Counted from the first letter of the whole stretch, positions 4,266 to 56,564 are shown. The stretch: DNA of 62,723 bases, filler included, from Globobulimina sp. (GCA_003354225.1; 10 parts of 10 records of this genome joined end to end with filler, not necessarily neighbours in it); one strand, 5' to 3'. Notes: generated by a model not told the origin, from the letters alone. Translations and numbers: made by a program.

Positions 4266-4326
4266 GTTGACTGTAGAAAAAACAACAAAAATTTTTATTT
4301 TAAGTCCACTTATTTTGTCAAACATA

Positions 4327-6199
4327 ATGGCAACCAAATCCGTGTTTTTTTTTTCGCTCACCGTGATCATGTTTGTTACTGCTATTTCATCAATTTTTGT
4401 CAGTCGAAATGGATTAGATGAGCAGAATTGTGGTAATTCGACCGATCAGTCATGTATGTTATCCTTAACACAATGTTATATCATTAACACAACACAAAAC
4501 AATTAAAACAAACCGAAGGTGGGACACTGTACTTTGCGGCAACATTATTAAATGAGAACATCACTGAAGTATACATTATAAATGGACAAAATCCAGCGAT
4601 ATTAAACAATTACATGGCTAACAACCATACCTACCATCCGTGTCTACCACAAACCATTGCGATTCAATCAAACATCCATATCACAATTACTTTTGATGAA
4701 TCTATACAACATATAACAGATTGGTATCCTCAAATTTGTATCGACTATGATCTAAACAATACAAATAACAATAATACGCAGACAAACTATTATATGTTTG
4801 CAGCAACAAAAACACATCTAACCCTTAACAATTTACATATTGATTTATCAGTATACACTGGCATTAATTTTGGAATTATTCGTGTTTCCAATGATTATGA
4901 CAACCAAATTGAAGCACAATTAACATGCAATGATTGTACATTTCAAAATATTGACAATAGCAACGAGCAAAATCAGGAAATGAACATGATTTACTGCACA
5001 AACTCCATAGCATTCAACAATGCCATATTCAGCAATGTCCACAGTATAAACGATTTCATTGTGATGGGAAAAAACACATTTGATATGAACAATATATTGG
5101 TCTCTGACTGCACATTCGACGAATCATTCATTAGAATCGAAGATGTTAGCTACGACTATGGAGCTCCCAATAACATCAATTTCGAAAACTGCCAATTTTC
5201 AAATATCTCTGCTCAAAACAGTCTGGTCAACGACCAGTGGATTTCGTGTGATTTGAGCATATTTAATGTTAATTTCAATGATATTCATCACGGATTTATT
5301 TATCGCGGAGCTTATGAATTTGGCAGTTCTGTGCGCCTGAAAAATATCAAAGTAACCACCTCTCAGTTATTCAGTGACGATATCGATGCTTTGTTTAATT
5401 TTAACTTTGCAGACACTGTCGAGATAGAAAATATTACCGTTGAATATGGCTATGATATCACAAAACGTTGTGTCTATGTCATTGATGCACTCGATTCCCA
5501 TTCTCGAATGAACGCATCCTATGTAGTCATACAATGCGATAATCCAATTGCATTGATATCGAATTTTGTATCCATGACCATCAACAATGCAGTATTGAGC
5601 ATTGATATTAGCGAGGAAGAGATGGAGTTATTGCGACAGCAACATTATGCAGATTATGATTATATAGCTTTAGGATATGTATACCATCCAACCTATGCTC
5701 TGATATCCAATCAAGGCGAGTTATATGTCACTAACATGAGTGTAAAGGGTCTGACCATTGCTCGTAGGATGTTTCATAATTATCATATATTAAATATTGA
5801 CAATTTCCAAGTGATTGCTCATTCTAATTACAGTCCAAACGCACTGCAATCCACTGGCATTATAAAGCAAAGCAGAGCCAGCGCCAATATTACCGTTCGT
5901 AATTCGCTATTTATTGGCGGGTTTAATATAATTCACATCCAAGGAGGGATTGTATCAGTTTATGATACAGCCTTCCAAGATGCGGCTGGCGCGTTTGAGG
6001 TGAAATCGGCAGACAATATTCTAATTTCGGCGTGTACTTTTTATCGTGTTGGCAGGTATTGGAGCAATGTTGCGTATGCCAACCAAAACACACTGCAGAT
6101 TTTGTATATTGAGGGAAATGCTGCAGTCCAACAACGTATCACCATCGAAAACAGTTATTTTTCTGGATATGATGACTTTTGCAGCAGTTTGTTTCTTTT
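4327..6199 (+). CDS. Secreted Asn-rich protein, probable right-handed beta-helix repeats, 3'-truncated
   Basis: ATG at 4327 with a signal peptide. Intron 4454..4518 joins NCGNSTDQSC to GTLYFA in frame with ORF 4614. Repeated xxNCxFxN/IxNSxF motifs. Confidence 0.7.
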
Positions 6200-6299
6200 N
6201 NNNNNNNNNNNNNNNNNNNNNNNNNNNNNNNNNNNNNNNNNNNTTAATTAATTAANNNNNNNNNNNNNNNNNNNNNNNNNNNNNNNNNNNNNNNNNNNN
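6200..6299. other. Artificial contig spacer (N44-TTAATTAATTAA-N44); identical spacers at 12499, 18794, 25089, 31376, 37654, 43930, 50205 and 56465
   Basis: Identical 100-nt spacers carrying stop codons in all six frames; contig lengths decrease monotonically from 6199 to 6159 bp. Confidence 0.98.
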
Positions 6300-12498: not shown

Positions 12499-13512
12499 NN
12501 NNNNNNNNNNNNNNNNNNNNNNNNNNNNNNNNNNNNNNNNNNTTAATTAATTAANNNNNNNNNNNNNNNNNNNNNNNNNNNNNNNNNNNNNNNNNNNNAG
12601 TTTATTTTGAGCTATTTCCCATATTCTGCGCTTGTATAGATCTTGAGATATGATCCCATCAATCGGGCAGAGTCCTAAATGTTTTTTTCTAAGTCCTATT
12701 TCTGTAGAACTATAGTAGATGTATGAAATTTAGGGAATAGCAAAGTATAAAACTGTATATTAAATATTATCTTACAATTACAGTGCCTTTAGTATCAATT
12801 ATGTTATTTAAAACCTTGGGCCAACCTTTATTTGCCTACATTTCTCATTCTTGCGGACAATACAACTTTTTTAGTCATTTTCACCAAAACATTCAATTTG
12901 TTTTGATTTTTTCGGATTGTTTTTTTTGAAAACGCTTTCATTAATTCACGTTGGGTGTTCGAAACAAGCTTCCATCAATAATTGATATATCACAAGAAGA
13001 TGTGTCATACCACCGAGTTTATTCGCGCCATAACCATTTGATGGATATACTTCAATGCGATTTTATATGTGTTGATATCCGGTTTTATATTTCTTCTTTT
13101 GAAATGCCTAATATTATTTCGATTTTTCCACCAATGGCTAACACATCGTCGTTAATATTTAAACCCTTGAGACTCCAATGAACGTTTTAAACTGGAAATT
13201 TTAATTGCAGTGGGATCGCGAATCCTATATCTGCCCATCAATTGACATCCTGTGCTCATAATTCTTTGTCTTTCATCAAAAGTTAGATTTGCCATTCTCA
13301 AATTATAAAACTACAGAAATATGACTTAGAAAAAAACATTTAGGACTACTGTTTGATAAACAAAATAAACTGTTTGATAAACCCTACAACATGAGCTATA
13401 TCGCAATATATAAAAGTTATTACTCGCGGAGAACCAGCTCAATACATTGTGTGATGGCAATTCTTGCCGGGTATGGTACAATGAGCTACCATCACATTGG
13501 AATGTCATTCCT

Positions 13513-16824: not shown

Positions 16825-18793
16825 TTAACTTGTATTCAACATCGATTCAAATGGTTCATATTTCTCTCCTTGTTTTAATTTGAATAACTCCTTTTTCTCC
16901 CACTCTCTCCACCTGCTCGCGAATGAAACCTGTGGCAATTTGAACTTTGTCAAATCTTCGTCAAAATCATCGAATAAATCTAATAAGTCCGCTCCATTTG
17001 ATATCGCATTGAATTCTAAACATAAATCCAAATTTACTTCATTTAAATGCGGTATAATTAGCGATTCGTCAAAATATGATAGATCCACTTCATTTATTTC
17101 TAATTCGTCTTTTAAATCTAAATAAAACTCATTCGGATTGAATGACTTATTGATATTTGGTAATGTTTCTGTTATAACTAACGATGATTTCTCCTCTTCG
17201 GCGCTCATTGATATCTCGATATTATTTGCCACTGTCTCCGGTTCCCAAAATTCTCTGTTTTTTTGTTCTGTTTCTAATAACATATTATTTAAAATATTAT
17301 ATTCAATCCACGCCGTTTCATTTAATGATTCTGTCTCCGATAAACGCGATAAATCTGAGTTCAACTCCGAAATTGAACTAATTTTCTTGTTCTTGTTTTT
17401 AAAGAAAATATTTGCGTTTAATTCTATTTTTAACGCTTTAATCTCTTTCTCATTCTTCTTTTCTTCCTTTTTTAATACTTTTTCAATTCGCATCCATTCC
17501 TTTACTCTCATTTCTTTCTCATAATCAATCAAATCCTGCTCCACTTTCTTCGTAAAATCCCTTGAAAACGTTCCCGTATTATTTGCGTCTTTCCCACTAT
17601 TCATCCCATGCGAAATCGCGCAGAATTGTGTTTGGTAAAATATTTCTTCTTTGCACAATTTTGCTTCACCAACGAACCGATTTTCTCCTTTTACCTGTTT
17701 TAAAACAAATGATTTCATCAATTTTAATGGATTTCCTTTGTTTTGTAGATAGCACCGCGTCCCATCCAAGCCTAAAAAGTGTAAAACTTCGCCCGTATAA
17801 TTCTTCTTAATACTCTTCAAAATCAATGCCAATAAACCAATATTCTCCGAAATCTCTCCATTTGGGCCATAAAAATTATTCTCCAACAAACGCTCATACA
17901 CTTTCTCAATATCTTTGATATGCTCTCTCGTCCTCGTCTTGAATTGGCGATTGTAGCTTTTTCCTCTTCCACACTTTCCAATGTATGGTATACCGCAATT
18001 GTCACAAATAATTGCGTAGATTATGTCTCTTGAAAAGCACGATGATCTGTTACTTTTTACCGATTGTCCCGTCGTTACGCACTTCCATTTTTTCATATTT
18101 TGCATCGTTTCTGGGTATTCTCGGCAGGCACAATCCTCTCTTCCTTCAGTGACACCTAATTTGTTCAAAGTATCACAGTCCATAAATCCTTTCCATTTAT
18201 CTAAATTGTCCAAATTTATCTTATTTTTATCAATCATTATAAATTTGCCAATGTTGCAAAAATTTACTAACGCATCATTCATAAAATCTGATTTTTCATC
18301 AAAATCCAATTTAAATGTGTTTGGCGAAATGATTTGATCCAATTTATCATAGCATTTGTAACTAATTTTGAATTTTTCGATGGGAAAAATCGCAGCCAAT
18401 TTCGGATCTGTTCTAATCCAATTATTATACGCCATATTTAATAAATTGTAAATATTTGGTAAATTGTTGTGGTATTTCACCACAAACCAAAATAATTTGT
18501 CTTTTACTTTTTTCGCGATGATTCTTGATATATTTTCATCACTTTCTGACTCGATTTTTTCTTCTTTATTTTCTATCGGATTATCAAAATATTTTCGTTT
18601 TCGTTTTTGTCGGATATACCATGGTTTCGTCCATATTTTCAGCGCTTGTTTTTTTGATAATTTTTGAAATTTATTAAATACATTATTAACTTGCCAGACA
18701 TCGTGATCTCTCGCAATAAGAAAGCTTTTGTAATTTATAAATTGTTTTTCAATAAATTGATCGTCGCAAATACTGCGTATTCTCAATGCTGTC
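16825..18793 (-). CDS. PLE polyprotein C-terminal part (thumb, GIY-YIG, long acidic/coiled-coil tail), 5'-truncated
   Basis: 653-aa ORF running into the contig end. Confidence 0.85.
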
Positions 18794-19055
18794 NNNNNNN
18801 NNNNNNNNNNNNNNNNNNNNNNNNNNNNNNNNNNNNNTTAATTAATTAANNNNNNNNNNNNNNNNNNNNNNNNNNNNNNNNNNNNNNNNNNNNTTTCTCT
18901 ATTTAATTTTCGTATTTCATCTTTATGCGCTTTCAATTGCTCATCTTTTTTTTTCAATTGCGCCTTTAATTCTTTTATCTGTTCGTTAAGATGTTTTATT
19001 GTGGACATTATATTATATAATAAGATAATATAATTTTCTTAAGTAAATATTTGAT

Positions 19056-25076: not shown

Positions 25077-25188
25077 GATTTTTATAATNNNNNNNNNNNN
25101 NNNNNNNNNNNNNNNNNNNNNNNNNNNNNNNNTTAATTAATTAANNNNNNNNNNNNNNNNNNNNNNNNNNNNNNNNNNNNNNNNNNNN

Positions 25189-25202
25189 GAATCGGGTTTC
25201 GG
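25189..25202 (+). repeat. 14-bp terminal redundancy (second copy at 31362-31375)
   Basis: GAATCGGGTTTCGG occurs at both contig ends. Confidence 0.92.
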
Positions 25203-25263
25203 TCCATTAGTTGTCTAGACCCGATACAGAGCACTGGTCAGGGGGACCTCGTCAGTAGACAAC
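25191..25263 (-). ncRNA. Hammerhead ribozyme with non-circularly permuted strand order
   Basis: Minus strand reads GTTGTCTA-CTGACGA-GGTCC-(18 nt)-ATCGGGT-C^TAGACAAC-TAAT-GGACC-GAA-ACCCGAT. Stems I (8 bp), II (5 bp) and III (7 bp) are all perfect; core CUGACGA/GAAA/GUC; predicted cleavage between 25218 and 25217. Confidence 0.88.
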
Positions 25264-25385
25264 CTGCCAGGCATCTTACCTATGTACTAAAAAACACTAA
25301 AAAACGGCATACTAATACGTTAGATAAAAATCTACTCTCAAAATATTGGGCAAAGTTTTTTATAAAAATTAAAATTAAAAATTAC

Positions 25386-25457
25386 TTCAATCTGTGTTGT
25401 TACCTCTTCATCTTCCTGTTCCTCTTCACGAGGTCGCTTGGTCTGTTCACGAGGCAT
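25386..25457 (-). CDS. Predicted first exon of ORF1 (MPREQTKRPREEEQEDEEVTTQIE)
   Basis: ATG at 25457; phase-0 donors at 25403 (AG|GTAACA) and 25385 (AA|GTAATT); matching phase-0 acceptor at 30433 across the junction. Confidence 0.55.
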
Positions 25458-25630
25458 ATTAAATAAACAAAAAAGACCCAAATAATAGAGAAAAATTAAA
25501 AATATTAAAATAAAAACTTTTTTTGTTTCTCGGCCCGAGTGCCTCAGCACCCGTACTTATTGGTCATGATCTGAAAACAATGGAAATTCTAATGACTGAT
25601 ATCTAGATATTTTTGACAAGTTATTATTTT

Positions 25631-25704
25631 AAGACCACTGACAAAAGTCAGCAATAAGACCACTGACAAAAGTCAGCAATAAAGACCACTAGCAAAGCCA
25701 GTAA
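25631..25704 (-). repeat. Hairpin repeat array 2 (3 copies, 25-26 bp period)
   Basis: Plus strand: AAGACC-ACTGAC-AAAA-GTCAGC twice, then AAGACC-ACTAGC-AAA-GCCAGT. Confidence 0.9.
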
Positions 25705-25852
25705 TAGATTTATGATATGTTAAAATTTTGAAGCATTAAATTTTGATTTGTTTTCAGTTCACGTAAATTTAGTATGATACTGAGACTTTTAATATTAGGA
25801 CCTTTCTTTATTGCAAATTTACTAATTTACGTTGCACCTTAACAACGCCTTG

Positions 25853-28800
25853 TTAGGCAATATGAGAAATACAGAAGTTGGCAATTTTTTGTTTATTATC
25901 CAGTTTAAATTTTAGCAATAATGTACTATAAATGGTAGCAAATTTGTAGAAGGTATGATATAAGCTAGCTTTATTATATCCGTTTTTAAGCAAGGTATGT
26001 ATCAGCTGTCCAACCCTTGGTGAAAAATCGTTAAAATTATTGCAAATTCTAGCAATTCTTATTAATTGTGTATAGAAGACCTTGTATCCCATAGATGTAT
26101 GTACATTGCTGTTTGCAAATCCATATCTAACCACATGGAAATTGAAGTCATCCGTTTTGTTATATACTGCTATTCTATGTTTACCAGGGTTAACACACAC
26201 CAATATATCAAGAAAACAACTTTCATATTTTGACTTAGCTGTATTTTCAAGTGGTAAGCAGTTTGGATAAATAAGCTTAGCATATTCTAGGAATTTATCA
26301 CAATTAATTGAAAGAATATCATCTATATACCTAATTGTATGACTAATTGATTTGGCTATAGTTTTGTTATTAATGTCTGTGAGAAAATCGTATTCCAGCA
26401 TACTTAACACAAGGTCTGCAATCAAAGGACTAGCATTACCGCCCATAGGTACACCACATATTTGTTTAAATAAGAACCCAGCAAATTTGACGTACGTTTC
26501 ATCAATAACATTATTAATAAGGCATTTAATGTCAATGTTGTCTAGCATTGCTATGTAATTGCTTTTGACTTGATCAGCATAATATACATTATTATAAGTA
26601 ACAATTACATATTTTTTATTAGAATGTCCAAATAGTAAATCCACAAGTTTGAACAACTGTTTTTTAATAATTTCATGTGGAAACATTGTATATAAAGCAC
26701 TAAAATCTGCAGTACATATGCTTTGCAGTTGATTAGCTTGCACTTTATGTTCTATTTTTCTATGTGCTTCCAAACTACCTTTAATTGACCAGTAACAGCT
26801 ATGCCCTTTCCTTTTGCTAACTGTGCCACAATATTTTTCGAAATGTTGTTGAAAATGTGCTAAAACTCGATGTAATATTATAGACATTGGTTTAGTTGAT
26901 GAATTACGAGCACCTGCTATAAATCGGAATTTGTATGGATTTTTATGTAATTTGGGTGTTGCGAATATAACAGGAAGGTTTTCGTCCTCTGTTTCGAATT
27001 TGATAAGTCCTGTTTGTGCTGTTAGAAGTTTGTGTTTATCAATAAGTTTATTTTCATCAATGTCACAAGGTTTATAGACATCATTGCCAACTACAGTACA
27101 AGTTCCATTATTATCAATATTGACACCAAGTTCTTTACACATAATTTCAATATAATATTTTTTACAAATAAATATGAAATTATTGCTTGCTTTATCTGCT
27201 GGTGCAATGACAAACTCCTTCTGTAAACGTAGCAATTCCATTTGACTTTCTTCTTGTGACAAACAAGAAACCATTCTTGTATTTCTTATATTCATTGACA
27301 GAAATTTGATTCTATTATCGACAATATTTGCATAAAGCTTTATGTATTCCTCTGTAGCCAAGGTAATGTCAACATATCTTCGAATTTTTGCATATGTCTT
27401 CTTGATATATTCGTCAACGACTTCCATTGCCACTTTTCTAACTTCAGTCCAATCAAATGTTTTCGGCTCTCGAAACTTGGCTCCCTTACCAAAAAGTTTT
27501 CTGAGTTTTATATCTTTAATTATATTTAAATCACCTGTAATAACATGTCCACATTGACTATAGACAAATTTAGATGTTGTACAATTACAGTGGTTATTTG
27601 CAAAATTATTTAATTCATTATTTTGCAATGTTTTAAGTGTTTTATTATAATTAAACAATTTACGACTAATAGGTGTTTCATATTTATATGTGATAATGGG
27701 TACATCTGATTTTTTATTATTAATGGAAATTCTTTTTCGTAATCTTCGGTCCTTGAAAATGGTTTCTAATTTCAGAAGTTCAATACCCTTATTTGGATAT
27801 CTAGCAACTACAATAATGCCTTTAGATTTATTGATAGTTTTATTGTTACAACCATAATATCCCGCCATATATGCTTGTGTTGCAAGTTTTGCATCTCCAT
27901 GCCAATGATCCAGGTTACCAGATTGTATGGTTTGATTAAGGAACAGTAAATTCTTTTTCGACAAAGATCGTAAGAATATATATAATTTCCGTCTATCAAA
28001 CAAGCCATCTGAACAGTCAATGTTACGTTTTGTTTTATTGATGATATCAGGATCAAGTTTCTTTGCTGTTCGCTTCTTTTTTCTATTTCTATTTCGTCTA
28101 GTAGATGGTAATGGTTTAGTAAAATATGGTTGTGTTGATTTGGATGCAGGGTCAATTCCACATGATACATCTCCATAGCACTTGATTCTATCATTCATAC
28201 CATAAGGAAAAGCTGTATTTAGTTGCCGAATCCAAAAATCTTCAACATTTTCACATTCCTTTCTATTTTTAGTTTTATCTGTAGATATAGGTATAGTTTC
28301 TATAATCTGCACTTGTAGATCGTTAACATTATGCCCAGTTTTATTAAAATGTTGAACTAAGTAAGTATTAGTTTCATTTTTCTTAATAGAATAAACATGT
28401 TCAGCAATTCTTTCTTTGAGTTTTCTAATAGTTTGCCCCACATATTGTAATTTACATTTTTGGCATGTGATAAGATATACTACATTTTTTGTGTTACAAT
28501 TTAATTGAACTTGATCTGTGCATGCTGTATATTTACTATTAGTAATAGTGCTATTTATATGTTGTTTTTCTTTGACATATTTACAGCAACTGCATCTATT
28601 TCCGCAGCATTTTTCTGTGTAATTACCAGTTGTATTATTATCATATATTTTAGCAGTAAAAGTAATTTTATTATTTTGATCAGTTTGTTTTGTGTATATA
28701 AAACGTGCTCCTTCCAGAAATCTTCTTGGATGACTAGAAACACTCAGCCCATCCCACATAGCATGTGCTCCGGCACCACTGTGAAATGAAGATGGTGTTA

Positions 28801-28870
28801 CAGAGGGTTCGCCCCCGGTGATTTTACAACCCATCCGGGGAAACGGGCGGGTCTCTAATTGTACTTCCAT
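25853..28870 (-). CDS. PLE ORF2: N-terminal GIY-YIG endonuclease plus reverse transcriptase (Naiad-like)
   Basis: EN: CCGNRCSCC, KNVVYLITCQKCKLQYVGQT, RIAEH, EDFWIRQLNTAFPYGMN. Linker: CNC..GHVITGDL, KGAKFREP. RT: PADKASNN, PKLHKNPYKFRFIA, DFSALYT, GVPMGG, RYIDD, FLDI, YNKTDDF. Intact 1005 codons; the true start is uncertain. Confidence 0.95.
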   Translation of the reverse strand: MEVQLETRPFPRMGCKITGGEPSVTPSSFHSGAGAHAMWDGLSVSSHPRRFLEGARFIYTKQTDQNNKITFTAKIYDNNTTGNYTEKCCGNRCSCCKYVKEKQHINSTITNSKYTACTDQVQLNCNTKNVVYLITCQKCKLQYVGQTIRKLKERIAEHVYSIKKNETNTYLVQHFNKTGHNVNDLQVQIIETIPISTDKTKNRKECENVEDFWIRQLNTAFPYGMNDRIKCYGDVSCGIDPASKSTQPYFTKPLPSTRRNRNRKKKRTAKKLDPDIINKTKRNIDCSDGLFDRRKLYIFLRSLSKKNLLFLNQTIQSGNLDHWHGDAKLATQAYMAGYYGCNNKTINKSKGIIVVARYPNKGIELLKLETIFKDRRLRKRISINNKKSDVPIITYKYETPISRKLFNYNKTLKTLQNNELNNFANNHCNCTTSKFVYSQCGHVITGDLNIIKDIKLRKLFGKGAKFREPKTFDWTEVRKVAMEVVDEYIKKTYAKIRRYVDITLATEEYIKLYANIVDNRIKFLSMNIRNTRMVSCLSQEESQMELLRLQKEFVIAPADKASNNFIFICKKYYIEIMCKELGVNIDNNGTCTVVGNDVYKPCDIDENKLIDKHKLLTAQTGLIKFETEDENLPVIFATPKLHKNPYKFRFIAGARNSSTKPMSIILHRVLAHFQQHFEKYCGTVSKRKGHSCYWSIKGSLEAHRKIEHKVQANQLQSICTADFSALYTMFPHEIIKKQLFKLVDLLFGHSNKKYVIVTYNNVYYADQVKSNYIAMLDNIDIKCLINNVIDETYVKFAGFLFKQICGVPMGGNASPLIADLVLSMLEYDFLTDINNKTIAKSISHTIRYIDDILSINCDKFLEYAKLIYPNCLPLENTAKSKYESCFLDILVCVNPGKHRIAVYNKTDDFNFHVVRYGFANSNVHTSMGYKVFYTQLIRIARICNNFNDFSPRVGQLIHTLLKNGYNKASLYHTFYKFATIYSTLLLKFKLDNKQKIANFCISHIA

Positions 28871-28891
28871 GATTGAAGATGAAATGAAACT

Positions 28892-28965
28892 GTCAAGATG
28901 AATGAAACCATATATTGGTCTTGAGTCAAGATGAATGAAACCAAATATTGGACTTGTGTAAGATG
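28892..28965. repeat. About 33-bp tandem duplication GTCAAGATGAATGAAACCA(T/A)ATATTGG(T/A)CTTG
   Basis: Two near-identical copies plus a partial third, just 5' of ORF2. Confidence 0.8.
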
Positions 28966-29177
28966 TTGAAGTATACTGATAGAAAGAAACTATGTGTATT
29001 AGACAAATTATAAGACTAGATGTCAGTAATAAATGTTTACTGACTCCAAGTATTATTCTATTTACTACGGAAGGAGAAGATACTTAAACATTATTTTTAT
29101 AATGCATGGTATGAATTGAATGTACATATGAATATGTGTGGAAATAAATGTAGTGTTAAATAAGATTGTAAACAATA

Positions 29178-29450
29178 ATAAGAACCACTGTCATATGACA
29201 GTAACCGGACTATATCATTAGCCAGAAAATAAGACCACTGTCATAAGACAGCAATAGGATAATATCATATGCCAAAACATTGGACCAATATCAGAAGTTA
29301 GTAATATTGCCACTATCATAAGATAGTAAATAAGACCACTGTCAAAAGACAGCAAAAGAGTAATATAATATGCCAGAACATTAGACCACTGACCATAAAT
29401 AAGACCACTGTCATAAGACAGTAAATAAGACCACTGTCAAAAGACAGTAA
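29178..29450 (-). repeat. Hairpin repeat array 1 (about 8 hairpin units interspersed with a second ~25-nt unit)
   Basis: Stems at 29187, 29237, 29312, 29338, 29407 and 29433 (ACTGTC-N4-GACAG[T/C], ACTATC-ATAA-GATAGT) plus degenerate copies; spacer unit G(G/A)NTA(A)TAT(C/A)AT(A)TGCCAGAA(C/A)AT three times. Confidence 0.9.
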
Positions 29451-29796
29451 ATGAACTATTGTAAAACCAATAAAATGTAATGAAATTCGAAGCAGATGAA
29501 TAGACACTTATTTGAAGATGTGAAATTATTTGATTTCAATGCAGATGTTAGTTTCTGGAAGGTTGAATGTATAAAAGAAAAAATCAAAAAAGAAAATCCA
29601 AAAAATTATTTTGTCGACGAAACTGGAAAGTACGATGAAAATTGGATGATTGCGAAATAGTTACAGTATCCTATGTTAACCATTGGCCCTGATATTTGTG
29701 ATAAGCAGGGGTCTTGAAACGAAAATATTGGCGAAAAATTTAAATTTTTTCACCAACATTTAATAACACGCATCAAAACCTAAATTTATCACAATA

Positions 29797-30432
29797 TCAC
29801 TCATTTGTAGAAGGGGCCGTTTCTGGTTTTCCATAGTCGATTGGGTTGGAAGGAAAATCTTTGTAGTGCTTAGCAGGAAGATCTCCTATGGCCATCTTGT
29901 TATATCCTATGAATTTTGCCTTAAATCCAGCATTTTTGTATGCTTCAACAACAGCATTTCTCTTTTTCTTTTCTTGTTGCTCCTTGAATGGTAAATCATT
30001 TTGTACGGAGACATTTTTATACTTTTGACCTAATCCTTGACATGGTGCCCAATGATGAAGATTTTTCTTAAGAGACATAATAAAACCACGATCCGATCGA
30101 CGAGTGAATGCAACTATGAACCCAACTGGAAGCTCATGAATGATGTCGACATGTGTGAGGATTTGATCAACTATATCTGGATCCATTCGAAGACCATCGA
30201 CACAGAGAAAGCGAAAAACTGATTCATAATCATTTTTGGTGATCTTGTTTTCTTTGAAAAGATGATCTTTATCAAGACCAAAAATACGAATATTATGTCC
30301 CCTGGTGACTTTTTCAAGACCATGTATAAGTTGATCGTGTTTTTCTTGTATTTGATGTACATCCTTGACTTCGGTTTTAAGTCGTTTAATCTCCTGTTCG
30401 AGTTTGTCAATGCGTTTCGTATTCATTGAAAC
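29797..30432 (-). CDS. ORF1p-like protein (coiled coil, RRM, CTD; LINE L1/CR1 ORF1 type), main exon
   Basis: Heptad N-terminus, then LEKVTRGHNIRIFGL (compare LE..SR..N(I/L)RI.G(I/L)), FIVAF and VSVQNDLP..Q..KK. Preceded by a branch-like TACTAAA and a TCTTCCAG acceptor (AG at 30434-30433). Confidence 0.75.
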   Translation of the reverse strand, partial: VSMNTKRIDKLEQEIKRLKTEVKDVHQIQEKHDQLIHGLEKVTRGHNIRIFGLDKDHLFKENKITKNDYESVFRFLCVDGLRMDPDIVDQILTHVDIIHELPVGFIVAFTRRSDRGFIMSLKKNLHHWAPCQGLGQKYKNVSVQNDLPFKEQQEKKKRNAVVEAYKNAGFKAKFIGYNKMAIGDLPAKHYKDFPSNPIDYGKPETAPSTNE

Positions 30433-31475
30433 CTGGAAGATTTAGTAAATGGTTTTTATTATGGATATTATGTAAAAACAAGTGTATAAGATAATTTTAA
30501 GTTGCAGCAATGTATATAAAAAGCAATGTTTGTAATAGTGGAAAAGTACTAATTACTATATGCCAATGTATGTATTGTATAGAACGAAAATTTTGTTTTG
30601 TACAGTAAATATGATTAAGAGTATAACTAAAATGGTACTTTTAATATATGGAATTTTAACTTGTATTGTGTATTTACTAATGGTATTAGGGACTATGTAT
30701 GAGTTAATGTGGTATGAACTATATGTTGTAGAGTATGGTACCAGTCTTGAATGGTATGATGCAGGTAACGACTATATAGTTATTGAATTTTATATAAAAT
30801 TGAAGCAAAGTTGTTATTTTTATTATTTTTAAATTGAAATGTATGGATTATAATTATGTAACACTAAATGTAGAAGTATTAATAAATATTAATTATAAAA
30901 TTGAGAGAATTGAAGAATTTTGATAGGTGAAAAAGTTTATTATATTTTAATTTGATATGAGTGAGTAAAATAAGATTGTTACTGCATAGTATAAATAGTA
31001 AAGATCATCCACCCTTGTTAGGGTCGAATTTCTATACTATTTTTTCAAAAATTTTTTGTTTTTATATTATTATAATATATGTACAATTTTAAGCAAACCA
31101 AATTTGGTAACGAAAAATAGCTGCTTGACAGCCAATAGGTAATAATGATAGATTGTATGTGAACTAGGGAACTTTTAGAATAAGATAATTTGTTTAACAG
31201 CGAAAAGCTAGCTAGTTACCTTGGAGCGGGCAGGCCTCTCCTCACAAGGACCAGCTAGTAGATGTAATAAAATTATATTAAATGAAAAACAAATAAAAAG
31301 GCCGTATTATAAACAGTAAAGGAAATCTGTCCCTGTACCTAAGGCAATTCTACTCCTATCTGAATCGGGTTTCGGNNNNNNNNNNNNNNNNNNNNNNNNN
31401 NNNNNNNNNNNNNNNNNNNTTAATTAATTAANNNNNNNNNNNNNNNNNNNNNNNNNNNNNNNNNNNNNNNNNNNN

Positions 31476-37487: not shown

Positions 37488-37753
37488 ATGTTTTATATTT
37501 AAAGAGGTTTTTGAGTGGGTGTTTGCTTGAAGTTGAAGGGAAGAAAAAACATAATAAATATAAATTACAGATAATTAATAGCAAAATAAAAAAGAAAAAA
37601 CATAATAAAACGTACAATATTAATTTCTAGAAAAAAACATAATAAATTGAGGCNNNNNNNNNNNNNNNNNNNNNNNNNNNNNNNNNNNNNNNNNNNNTTA
37701 ATTAATTAANNNNNNNNNNNNNNNNNNNNNNNNNNNNNNNNNNNNNNNNNNNN

Positions 37754-43929: not shown

Positions 43930-44096
43930 NNNNNNNNNNNNNNNNNNNNNNNNNNNNNNNNNNNNNNNNNNNNTTAATTAATTAANNNNNNNNNNNNNNN
44001 NNNNNNNNNNNNNNNNNNNNNNNNNNNNNTGAATCTGATAAATCGATGCCATTATATATTTAGTATACATTGAACTTGGATTATGCAGCAAAAATG

Positions 44097-49681: not shown

Positions 49682-50304
49682 CTATGCAATGCATATGCAA
49701 TAAAATATCATTTAATTATATAGTAGTTATAAGTGCATATACATTTAAATTAACTAATCGCCGCGAAGTTATATTGTACGATGTTGAATACAATATGTTA
49801 GAATGAAATGTGCGTCTCCACAGTGACATGATTGCAATTTAACACTAGGTTTTTTTAATCAGTGATCTGTCAGTCGCTACACTATAATGACTATATACAA
49901 GTAATTCTATAGTAAACACAAAAATAAAATAGAATTATAATATTTATAATAGATCGATATTCACAATTTGATAAACTCACTTTTGTTTGGTCTAAAAATT
50001 ACAGGGTTTTCAAATGTTGGTTGGTTATGACAAAGCTTTATCATGACTTTTTTTTCCTTATCATGACTTTTTTTTTCTTTGTCATGACAAACCAACATTT
50101 GAAAACTCTGAAAAATTAACACATAACAAAAGTAAGCTATCAATGGTCGAGATTGGAGCGTTATACATTTTGTCATTTAATCCCATTATCTTTATCATTT
50201 CCCANNNNNNNNNNNNNNNNNNNNNNNNNNNNNNNNNNNNNNNNNNNNTTAATTAATTAANNNNNNNNNNNNNNNNNNNNNNNNNNNNNNNNNNNNNNNN
50301 NNNN

Positions 50305-56464: not shown

Positions 56465-56564
56465 NNNNNNNNNNNNNNNNNNNNNNNNNNNNNNNNNNNN
56501 NNNNNNNNTTAATTAATTAANNNNNNNNNNNNNNNNNNNNNNNNNNNNNNNNNNNNNNNNNNNN

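Follow-up and report, generated by a model that had tools for sequence, protein, structure and literature searches.

We consider it highly probable that the contig at positions 25189-31375 of a 62,723-nt stretch of DNA from Globobulimina sp. (GCA_003354225.1; the whole stretch is referred to as the window) represents an intact two-gene Penelope-like element (PLE) of the Naiad clade from an AT-rich, probably marine eukaryote, in head-to-tail form and most likely collapsed from a genomic tandem, and that the element carries a first open reading frame (ORF1) resembling LINE-1 ORF1p and a hammerhead ribozyme motif of type CSG. Counts out of 102 sequences refer to this element plus 101 related loci, which were fetched as relatives of the second gene (ORF2) and comprised 21 loci (L001-L021) from genome bins labeled as prokaryotic and 80 loci from metagenomes. 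Logan contigs from four sequencing runs (X1-X4) were aligned to positions 25189-31375.

ORF2 and ORF1 of the element

Pfam placed a GIY-YIG domain at residues 129-219 of ORF2 and an RVT_1 reverse transcriptase (RT) domain, scoring below its curated cut-off, at residues 643-853, with the endonuclease (EN) N-terminal to the RT. A cysteine-rich linker (CCGNRCSCC, residues 88-96), a KR-rich segment (RRNRNRKKKRTAKK, residues 258-271), and the motifs HCNCT (residues 427-431), GKGAKF (residues 461-466), and ADKAS (residues 558-562) were also recognized. C428 and C430 were invariant in 15 aligned ORF2 sequences, D559, K560, and A561 were invariant in the ORF2 alignment A2, and the CCHH residues C136, C139, H158, and H174 were invariant or nearly so. 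A Cys linker, a GIY-YIG domain with CCHH, a KR-rich segment, CxC, GxKF/Y, and the change from DKG to DKA have been described as hallmarks of Naiads, whereas Chlamys elements are described as having neither CCHH nor the linker finger (Craig et al. 2021; PMC8557442). Judged by these motifs, ORF2 is the GIY-YIG-CxC-RT protein of a Naiad-type PLE, as the preliminary description of this DNA had proposed. The 50 ORF2 homologues found included no close ones (the closest database proteins were 36-39% identical), and the element fell in an 11-row clade with 99% support in a FastTree phylogeny with 72 database relatives, which placed it among N-terminal-EN elements. It counts against the placement that it is based on the motifs and on a tree of relatives without named reference elements. 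With two ORFs in a 6173-bp unit, the element also departs from the single ORF in a body of 3.4-4.4 kb given for Naiads. The latter figures describe typical Naiads and are not a definition.

The relatives of ORF2 were recovered from metagenome contigs with alignment A2, whereas ORF2 alone found no relatives in the same kind of scan, and none were found in a scan of viral contigs. L001-L021 lay on short contigs of assemblies labeled as bacterial or archaeal metagenome-assembled genomes, several of them from the same isolate series; most likely, these Naiad loci are eukaryotic host DNA that was binned with microbes.

In a set of 1.84 billion representatives, only 13 were related to ORF1 at E <= 0.001, and the profile of 13 ORF1 sequences matched human LINE-1 ORF1p (2ykp_A, E 2.7e-7) over positions 29-183, spanning the coiled coil, the RNA recognition motif (RRM), and part of the C-terminal domain. 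The AlphaFold (AF2) model of ORF1, with a predicted local distance difference test score (pLDDT) of 90.7, showed a helix at residues 3-42 followed by alpha/beta domains, and the top 10 Foldseek matches to this model were all L1 ORF1p (E down to 8e-7, TM 0.5-0.6, 185-192 aligned columns). Thus, in profile and modeled fold, ORF1 is LINE-1 ORF1p-like. In LINE-1 ORF1p (PDB 2ykp, 2yko, 2ykq, 2ldy), the coiled coil, RRM, and C-terminal domain likewise follow one another, and the gene likewise lies upstream of the RT gene in the same transcript. However, the two proteins share only 14-16% identity in the structural alignment, and their partners differ, that of ORF1 being a PLE protein with RT and GIY-YIG and that of LINE-1 ORF1p being an APE/RT protein. 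It also weighs against the assignment that ORF1 had no Pfam match, Transposase_22 included, and that none of the 13 members of the ORF1 set A1 matched L1 ORF1p families at E <= 1.

ORF2 starts 925 nt downstream of ORF1. An ORF1 homologue upstream of ORF2 and on the same strand was found in 4 of the 102 sequences, namely the element, L001, L002, and L009, which are all the members of the 11-row clade whose sequence extends for more than 1 kb upstream of ORF2; the other 98 had no upstream ORF1 homologue. By BLASTP, ORF1 of the element matched that of L001 with E 4e-15 and that of L002 with E 2e-7. Because the same order and strand recurred in these three loci, we concluded from sequence comparison that the ORF1 gene belongs to the element, and the two-gene architecture with an ORF1p-like gene that had been suggested for it was thereby supported. 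We consider it very improbable that ORF1 is foreign, that is, a LINE fragment or a host gene beside a single-ORF Naiad, or the product of mis-assembly. Such an origin would agree with the description of Naiads as single-ORF elements of 3.4-4.4 kb (PMC8557442), with the small number of ORF1 relatives, and with the depth of X1, which climbed from 9-20 in the ORF1 region to 28-107 in ORF2, X2 being nearly devoid of ORF1 coverage. However, the three loci that share the arrangement came from two other assemblies, ORF1 and ORF2 had diverged about equally (28% versus 35-39% identity), the first exon of ORF1 appears to lie downstream of ORF2 in both the element and L002, which would interleave the gene with the element, L001 repeats ORF1 after the ribozyme, and a lower depth at the 5' end is a product of 5' truncation.

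Three observations concern ORF2-like sequences elsewhere. According to precomputed Pfam annotation, the ORF2 relatives P0012 and P0016 combine a ubiquitin C-terminal hydrolase domain (PF00443) with GIY-YIG, and they may represent a protease-bearing Naiad variant. On another contig of the window, an ORF on the minus strand (16828-18792) was weakly similar to the Naiad ORF2 profile (E 7e-9) and is probably another reverse-transcriptase element. In L076, positions 1026-1085, just upstream of the ORF2 match, resembled SECIS_1 weakly (E 0.26; 27.6 bits, the gathering score being 35); selenoprotein-coding Naiads were reported by Craig et al. (PMC8557442).

A head-to-tail unit of 6173 bp

Positions 25189-31375 are exactly one whole contig of 6187 bp, with artificial N44-TTAATTAATTAA-N44 spacers on either side. 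Its first 14 nt are identical to its last 14 nt (GAATCGGGTTTCGG), leaving a unit of 6173 bp, and it was the only one of the 10 contigs in the window with a terminal direct redundancy of at least 8 nt. The redundancy and unit length given in the preliminary description were thus confirmed, as was the arrangement of the parts on one strand (minus) in the order ORF1, hairpin array, ORF2, second array, ORF1 exon 1, and hammerhead-type motif.

The joint from 31361 to 25189, at which the sequence goes back 6173 nt, was present in one Logan contig of X1 and one of X2. The X2 contig was 195 nt long, reaching 96 nt to one side of the joint and 99 nt to the other, and X2 is a marine metagenome from another study. 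Therefore, the head-to-tail junction, for which spanning reads had been proposed as a check, is real outside this assembly. X1 carried 94% of the sampled words of 25189-31375 and is probably the sample from which the contig came, and runs X3 and X4 held next to nothing of it. Accordingly, it must be set against our reading that only X2 is independent evidence for the junction and barely covers ORF1, and that contigs alone cannot discriminate a tandem from a circle.

Several further observations bear on this distinction. In L001, the order ORF1-ORF2-ribozyme-ORF1 was found on a linear contig, and its two ORF1 copies differed in sequence; in L002, positions 1-73 were identical to 5008-5080, and in L015 the ribozyme region occurred twice, 4558 nt apart, both on linear contigs. 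Terminal redundancies of 53-141 nt were present in 7 of the 101 related loci and are the usual look of a collapsed repeat in de Bruijn assembly. Another 4 pairs become possible in stem III of the ribozyme only when the sequence runs on over the unit junction, into 31361-31358. Other copies in X1 ran into unrelated sequence, as at 31263, where two X1 contigs had loose ends, and these diverging copies, together with the depth gradient of X1, fit what is expected of 5'-truncated integrated copies. PLEs, Naiads included, have been described as forming partial tandems that trouble short-read assemblies (PMC8557442). Taken together, the 6173-bp unit is arranged head-to-tail, and a chromosomal tandem is most likely.

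To an extrachromosomal circle, either of DNA or a circle of cDNA or RNA arising after ribozyme cleavage as in retrozymes, we give only a small chance. An overlap of 14 nt closes the contig on itself, contigs of two runs bridge its end to its start, none of the aligned contigs joins the full unit to unrelated flanks at both ends, and hammerhead-bearing retrozymes have been reported to make circular RNAs. However, the published partial tandems of PLEs, the linear tandems of non-identical copies in the same order in L001, L002, and L015, the divergence of X1 copies into unrelated sequence at 31263 and elsewhere, as integrated copies would show, and the depth gradient all argue for a chromosomal tandem. 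Thus, of the earlier proposal of a circular or tandem element, the head-to-tail joint was upheld and the circular form was not. Both ORFs of the element are intact, and 39 of the 163 aligned X1 contigs were at least 99% alike, which makes recent activity of the element plausible on sequence grounds. Beside the divergence point at 31263, a GC-rich imperfect hairpin (31205-31258) is a possible unit boundary; its fold was not significant against shuffles (z -1.15).

A type-CSG hammerhead motif in the element and its relatives

On the minus strand, positions 25263-25191 read GUUGUCUA-CUGACGA-GGUCC-(18 nt)-AUCGGGU-C|UAGACAAC-(UAAU)-GGACC-GAA-ACCCGAU. All five strand connections of the core were as in the hammerhead, and the blocks followed in the order C (CUGAnGA), S (site), and G (GAA). 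Because of this C-S-G order, the three stems cross one another, and no capping loop is present on any of them. No Rfam hammerhead was found on the contig at E <= 10, nor in the window at gathering score. By its sequence, the motif is a type-CSG non-circular permutation of the hammerhead, and by analogy with the hammerhead core, cleavage is predicted after C25218. The ribozyme had previously been described as atypical and placed at both ends of the unit; the first holds, although the motif is not of an undescribed kind and matches the type-CSG of Eckert et al. (2023; PMC10085705), and there is one ribozyme per unit, the other end carrying only the 14 repeated nt.

Type-CSG was named by Eckert, Friedrich, Weinberg & Weinberg (2023) from only two similar metagenomic DNA sequences, and both RNAs cleaved in vitro at the predicted site, into 48/49 + 29 nt, at 0.004 and 0.026 per min; the biological relevance of the type was called uncertain, and the evidence for it was judged weaker than for type SGC (PMC10085705). 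The published pair and the present set share the order CUGAnGA, cleavage site, GAA and the occurrence in DNA. In both sets a short linker (here 3-6 nt in the insert-free forms) connects stems I and II. The published RNAs appear to have a helix that brings these two stems together; here a bridging helix was seen in seven of ten sequences and is weak in the element itself. The predicted fragments of the element, about 47 + 29 nt, are also similar in size to the published ones. The likeness to CSG-1 and CSG-2 is one of block order and description. In contrast to the two published sequences, with modest covariation and no biological context, the present set comprises 12 sequences in Naiad retrotransposons with full stem covariation.

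The 102 sequences were scanned for all six hammerhead block orders, both without and with inserts. In the insert-free scan, at least 15 stem pairs were reached by type-CSG only (21 in the element, 21 in L001, 20 in L098, and 18 in L025, all on the ORF2 strand), and no CGS, GSC, or SCG match of at least 15 pairs was present. Shuffling 20 times gave CSG scores of 14 at best, and when all 102 sequences were shuffled 100 times, scores of at least 18 arose in 3 rounds and of at least 21 in none. L023 is a near-copy of L025 that is cut by the contig end, and L038 fits with a 1-nt bulge after A9. With inserts allowed, CSG motifs were also found in L081 (3218-3312), L002 (4933-5040), L015 (771-866 and 5329-5424), and L076 (248-341); each insert is a pair of small hairpins placed exactly where A9 of CUGAUGA would adjoin stem II, and the second hairpin has strands that resemble those of stem I. 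Overall, the type-CSG motif was present in 12 of the 102 sequences (the element and 11 of the 101 loci), in all cases on the ORF2 strand; 61 of the 102 have at least 300 nt downstream of ORF2. In the 11-row clade of the element, the motif was found in 8 members, and L006 and L009 have no downstream sequence. The 11 ribozyme-bearing loci had no Rfam hammerhead match at E <= 1.

Pairs were counted in ten non-duplicate sequences anchored on the core, and a MAFFT alignment of six ribozymes, which misplaced the cleavage-site block, was not used. Of the 140 anchored stem cells, 137 paired, versus 37-57 when the partner was slid, and 2-5 standard pair types occurred at 11 of the 14 anchored positions, with stem sequences that differed throughout. 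CUGAnGA, GAAA, and U-H were present in all ten, as demanded by the scan; G10.1-C11.1 and C15.2-G16.2, which the scan did not require, were also present in all ten, as was A15.1-U16.1. A fourth, bridging helix that was not used in the scan, between the 14 nt upstream of stem I and the linker after stem II, formed 8-14 bp in seven of the ten, with only 0-7 of 500 shuffles as good. Strand, position, shuffle controls, and this fourth helix are the independent evidence for the motif.

Other candidates were rejected. A looser scan with one mismatch per stem gave weak matches in L011, L049, L085, L007, L033, L020, and L044, which were regarded as noise (shuffle scores for type CSG were 12-19), and the other block orders that reached 16-19 pairs in the insert-allowing scan (SCG in L005, SGC in L071, CGS on the minus strand of L098, GSC in L037, and GCS/SGC in L002) were within the shuffle range.

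A number of points weigh against the type-CSG assignment. The shuffles preserved mononucleotide content only, and the covariation set was picked by a scan that demands pairing, which by itself produces part of the paired share. One mismatch in stems I and III has to be allowed for L024 and for L035, a near-copy of it; L022, a member of the clade of the element, retains only a decayed C block; and L081, L002, L015, and L076 have an insert of 25-33 nt after A9 that no known hammerhead has, inserts above 1-2 nt at that place being absent from the known hammerheads described in PMC10085705. In the element itself, the longest contiguous run of the bridging helix is 4 bp, with 477 of 500 shuffles as good, and about 7-9 bp form only with a bulge, by manual reading; furthermore, the linear segment has a competing nested minimum-energy fold of -30.9 kcal/mol, by a folding method without pseudoknots.

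The motif might instead be an inactive relic or a structure with another purpose, such as protein binding or the start of reverse transcription, with no part in RNA processing in vivo. The weak bridging helix and the large core insert in four relatives speak for such a relic, as do the slow cleavage of the published type-CSG RNAs and the Anolis PLE, in which insertion in vitro needs no hammerhead cleavage and no reads end at the cleavage site (PMC11167929). We nevertheless consider it unlikely. The core and the pairs G10.1-C11.1, A15.1-U16.1, and C15.2-G16.2 were kept in all ten sequences, although their ORF2 proteins are only 26-40% identical to that of the element and the stems are wholly changed; therefore, selection on the catalytic fold is indicated. 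In addition, type-CSG RNAs do cleave at the predicted site (PMC10085705).

Further features, known relatives, and significance

The coordinates of the element are collected in table 1. ORF1 appears, from its sequence, to be split, with exon 1 downstream of ORF2 and a putative intron over the unit junction. Joining exon 1 to exon 2 keeps the frame and would remove a GT-AG intron of 1144 nt across the junction, whose acceptor side lies just upstream of ORF1 (...cttccAG|GTTTCAATG). The KRP and acidic motif of exon 1 also occurs in N-terminal extensions of distant ORF1 homologues. In L002, an exon-1-like ORF with RKRPRDD...LQ|GTAGAT lies between ORF2 and the ribozyme, and the ORF1 body begins right after ...gcatAG, without a start codon of its own. 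The putative intron is supported because the motif is shared and L002 has the same layout, and the proposed first exon and intron of ORF1 are thus plausible in both sequences. It counts against this reading that splicing, cleavage, and the transcription start are all derived from sequence. Introns that span the boundary between pseudo-LTR (pLTR) and body are known from Penelope of Drosophila virilis and from Chlamys-3_cRei, in which transcription starts in the pLTR, as is proposed here, and PLEs keep introns (PMC8557442). However, those introns lie in the 5' untranslated region of a single ORF, whereas the putative intron here would split a separate ORF1 and enclose the ribozyme.

Both hairpin arrays of the preliminary description were present. 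The array between ORF1 and ORF2 folded better than all 200 shuffles (z -5.92); its unit has a stem of 5-6 bp, a UUUU or UUAU loop, and a conserved UGGUCUUAUU, and the stems covary between units (CUGUC/GACAG, CUGAC/GUCAG, and CUAUC/GAUAG). The hairpin-unit motif was absent from the nine other contigs of the window and from all 101 loci, and L001 has an unrelated 24-nt hairpin repeat (4300-4345) at the same place after ORF2. In an Anolis PLE, reverse transcription begins inside a stem-loop of the element RNA (PMC11167929); by analogy, a role of the arrays in protein binding or initiation can be guessed at.

A GC-rich structured island had also been proposed. The GC-rich stretch (0.45-0.54 over about 28715-28870) lies inside ORF2, in the first 50 codons or so; its fold was equalled by 24 of 200 shuffles (z -1.36), Rfam gave no match to it, and no RNA structure is demonstrable in this coding start. 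Right after the start codon, it encodes the peptide LETRPxYPAxGxKI(S/T)G(D/E)P (ORF2 residues 5-22, 28805-28858), which is present in the element, P0002, P0003, P0004, P0008, and P0011, in an N-terminal sequence that is otherwise variable. Among the fetched loci, the peptide motif was found in the element only, and conservation of RNA and of peptide are not separable here.

Table 1. Positions of the element and its parts in the window; ranges with a hyphen are given in the direction of the minus strand
Feature	Positions	Strand	Basis
Whole contig: one 6173-bp unit plus 14 repeated nt	25189..31375	-	spacers; joint in X1 and X2
Terminal redundancy, copy 1, 14 nt, inside GAA/stem III strand of ribozyme	25189..25202		
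Terminal redundancy, copy 2, 14 nt	31362..31375		
ORF1 exon 2, LINE-1 ORF1p-like (coiled coil, RRM, C-terminal domain); ATG-to-stop ORF of 209 aa at 30426-29797	29797..30432	-	
Putative ORF1 exon 1, 18 codons MPREQTKRPREEEQEDEE, then donor GTAACA	25404..25457	-	in-frame ATG, KRP + acidic motif
Putative intron, 5' part, contains ribozyme; resumes at 31361	25189..25403	-	
Putative intron, 3' part, ends ...cttccAG at 30433	30433..31361	-	
ORF2, 1005 aa: N-terminal GIY-YIG, CxC linker, RT	25853..28870	-	Pfam, motifs
GC-rich ORF2 start; encodes conserved LETRP...KITGGEP (28858-28805)	28715..28870	-	
Cys-rich linker (CCGNRCSCC, 28609-28583) and GIY-YIG with CCHH and R, H, E, N residues	28190..28609	-	
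Naiad diagnostic motifs: CxC (HCNCT, 27592-27578), GKGAKF (27490-27473), ADKA (27199-27185)	27185..27592	-	
RT core: PKLHK, motif A TADFSALY, motif B GVPMGGNASP, motif C RYIDD	26312..26956	-	
Hairpin-unit array lying between the two ORFs; some 11 units, each of about 26 nt (stem of 5-6 bp plus UGGUCUUAUU)	29177..29452	-	
33-nt tandem repeat, 2.3 copies, just upstream of ORF2 start	28892..28965	-	
Second hairpin-unit array, downstream of ORF2, 2.3 units	25631..25690	-	
GC-rich imperfect hairpin; possible unit boundary beside divergence point 31263	31205..31258	-	X1 loose ends
Type-CSG hammerhead	25189..25272	-	motif scan, block order; no Rfam family
Bridging helix, 5' strand	25272-25264	-	
Stem I, strand 2.x	25263-25256	-	
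CUGACGA	25255-25249	-	
Stem II, 10.x	25248-25244	-	
Linker with bridging-helix 3' strand	25243-25226	-	
Stem III, 16.x	25225-25219	-	
C17	25218	-	
Predicted self-cleavage site, after C 25218 / before U 25217	25217..25218	-	analogy with hammerhead core
Stem I, 1.x	25217-25210	-	
Linker	25209-25206	-	
Stem II, 11.x	25205-25201	-	
GAA	25200-25198	-	
Stem III, 15.x; can add 4 pairs into 31361-31358 over junction	25197-25191	-	

The window (1-62723) consists of ten contigs, sorted by length from 6199 to 6159 bp, with nine N44-TTAATTAATTAA-N44 spacers between them (artificial joints at 6200-6299, 12499-12598, 18794-18893, 25089-25188, 31376-31475, 37654-37753, 43930-44029, 50205-50304, and 56465-56564). 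A RING-finger gene on one side of the element and a P-type ATPase gene on the other are uninformative about its surroundings because they lie on separate contigs. On the next contig (31476-33718), the P-type ATPase ORF of more than 760 aa has a GC content of 52-54% and is followed by sequence of 26-30% GC, a sharp difference between coding and non-coding DNA that may be of use in placing the host.

Each component of the element has a published relative. The Naiads of Craig, Yushenova, Rodriguez & Arkhipova (2021) share the single EN-RT polyprotein, with N-terminal GIY-YIG bearing CCHH, the KR-rich segment, CxC, GxKF, and DKA, the head-to-tail or pLTR arrangement, and the absence of a canonical hammerhead (PMC8557442). 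The present unit is longer (6.17 kb versus 3.4-4.4 kb), and it has in addition an upstream ORF1p-like gene with a putative intron and two hairpin-unit arrays; it also has a non-canonical type-CSG hammerhead, whereas Naiads were reported to lack canonical hammerheads, unlike other endonuclease-bearing PLEs. Chlamys-2_cBra of Chara braunii (PMC8557442) is a precedent: it too is a PLE with an N-terminal EN, has a further ORF upstream, and bears a hammerhead close to its 3' end. A two-ORF element of this kind is thus already described. However, the upstream ORF of Chlamys-2_cBra encodes a gag-like zinc-knuckle protein and its hammerhead is canonical, and it belongs to Chlamys, without CCHH, whereas the present element keeps CCHH and DKA. 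Type-CSG hammerheads, introns that span the pLTR boundary, and LINE-1 ORF1p account for the other components. What seems to be new is the combination of the parts and the link between type-CSG hammerheads and Naiads. In the literature searched, most subscription journals being outside it, "type-CSG" occurred in PMC10085705 only, permuted hammerheads were not linked to PLEs, and no ORF1p- or RRM-type ORF1 was described in a PLE.

With these parts, we proposed the following life cycle for the element. Transcription would start in the pLTR part downstream of ORF2 and run through the tandem units. Splicing of exon 1 (25457-25404) to exon 2 (30432) over the junction-crossing intron would drop the ribozyme and give an mRNA for ORF1p with its KRP-acidic N-terminus, and perhaps for ORF2p, and unspliced multimeric RNA would cut itself after C25218 into unit-length RNA. 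Trimers of ORF1p would coat this RNA, and ORF2p would nick the target and reverse-transcribe the RNA, as in other PLEs, leaving 5'-truncated and partly tandem copies.

The element appears to join two observations that had stood open, namely the apparent lack of hammerheads in Naiads and a permuted hammerhead for which no home was known, and the rearranged order of type-CSG may explain why Naiads were thought to be free of ribozymes. A wider proposal, which is tentative and which we hold to be rather doubtful, is that type-CSG hammerheads are the native ribozymes of Naiads across marine eukaryotes, which would make them the first ribozymes with a non-circular permutation whose genetic context is known. 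Under this proposal, the ribozyme would sit in a spliceosomal intron that can be removed only from junction-spanning, that is, multimeric or circularized, RNA, splicing toward the ORF1p mRNA and self-cleavage toward a unit-length template or circular RNA would compete and so partition the transcripts, and the variants in which a two-hairpin insert separates A9 from stem II would represent yet another hammerhead form, one subject to regulation.

If type-CSG is indeed the ribozyme of Naiads, hammerheads would be common to more PLE clades than was thought, the permuted ribozyme would gain a host, many covarying examples, and a testable role, and non-circular permutations would have to be covered by the descriptors with which repeats are searched for ribozymes. 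The putative junction-crossing intron that holds the ribozyme offers a concrete handle on the processing of PLE transcripts, and a LINE-1 ORF1p-like gene in a PLE would mean that the same RNA-packaging module serves two unrelated classes of retrotransposons.

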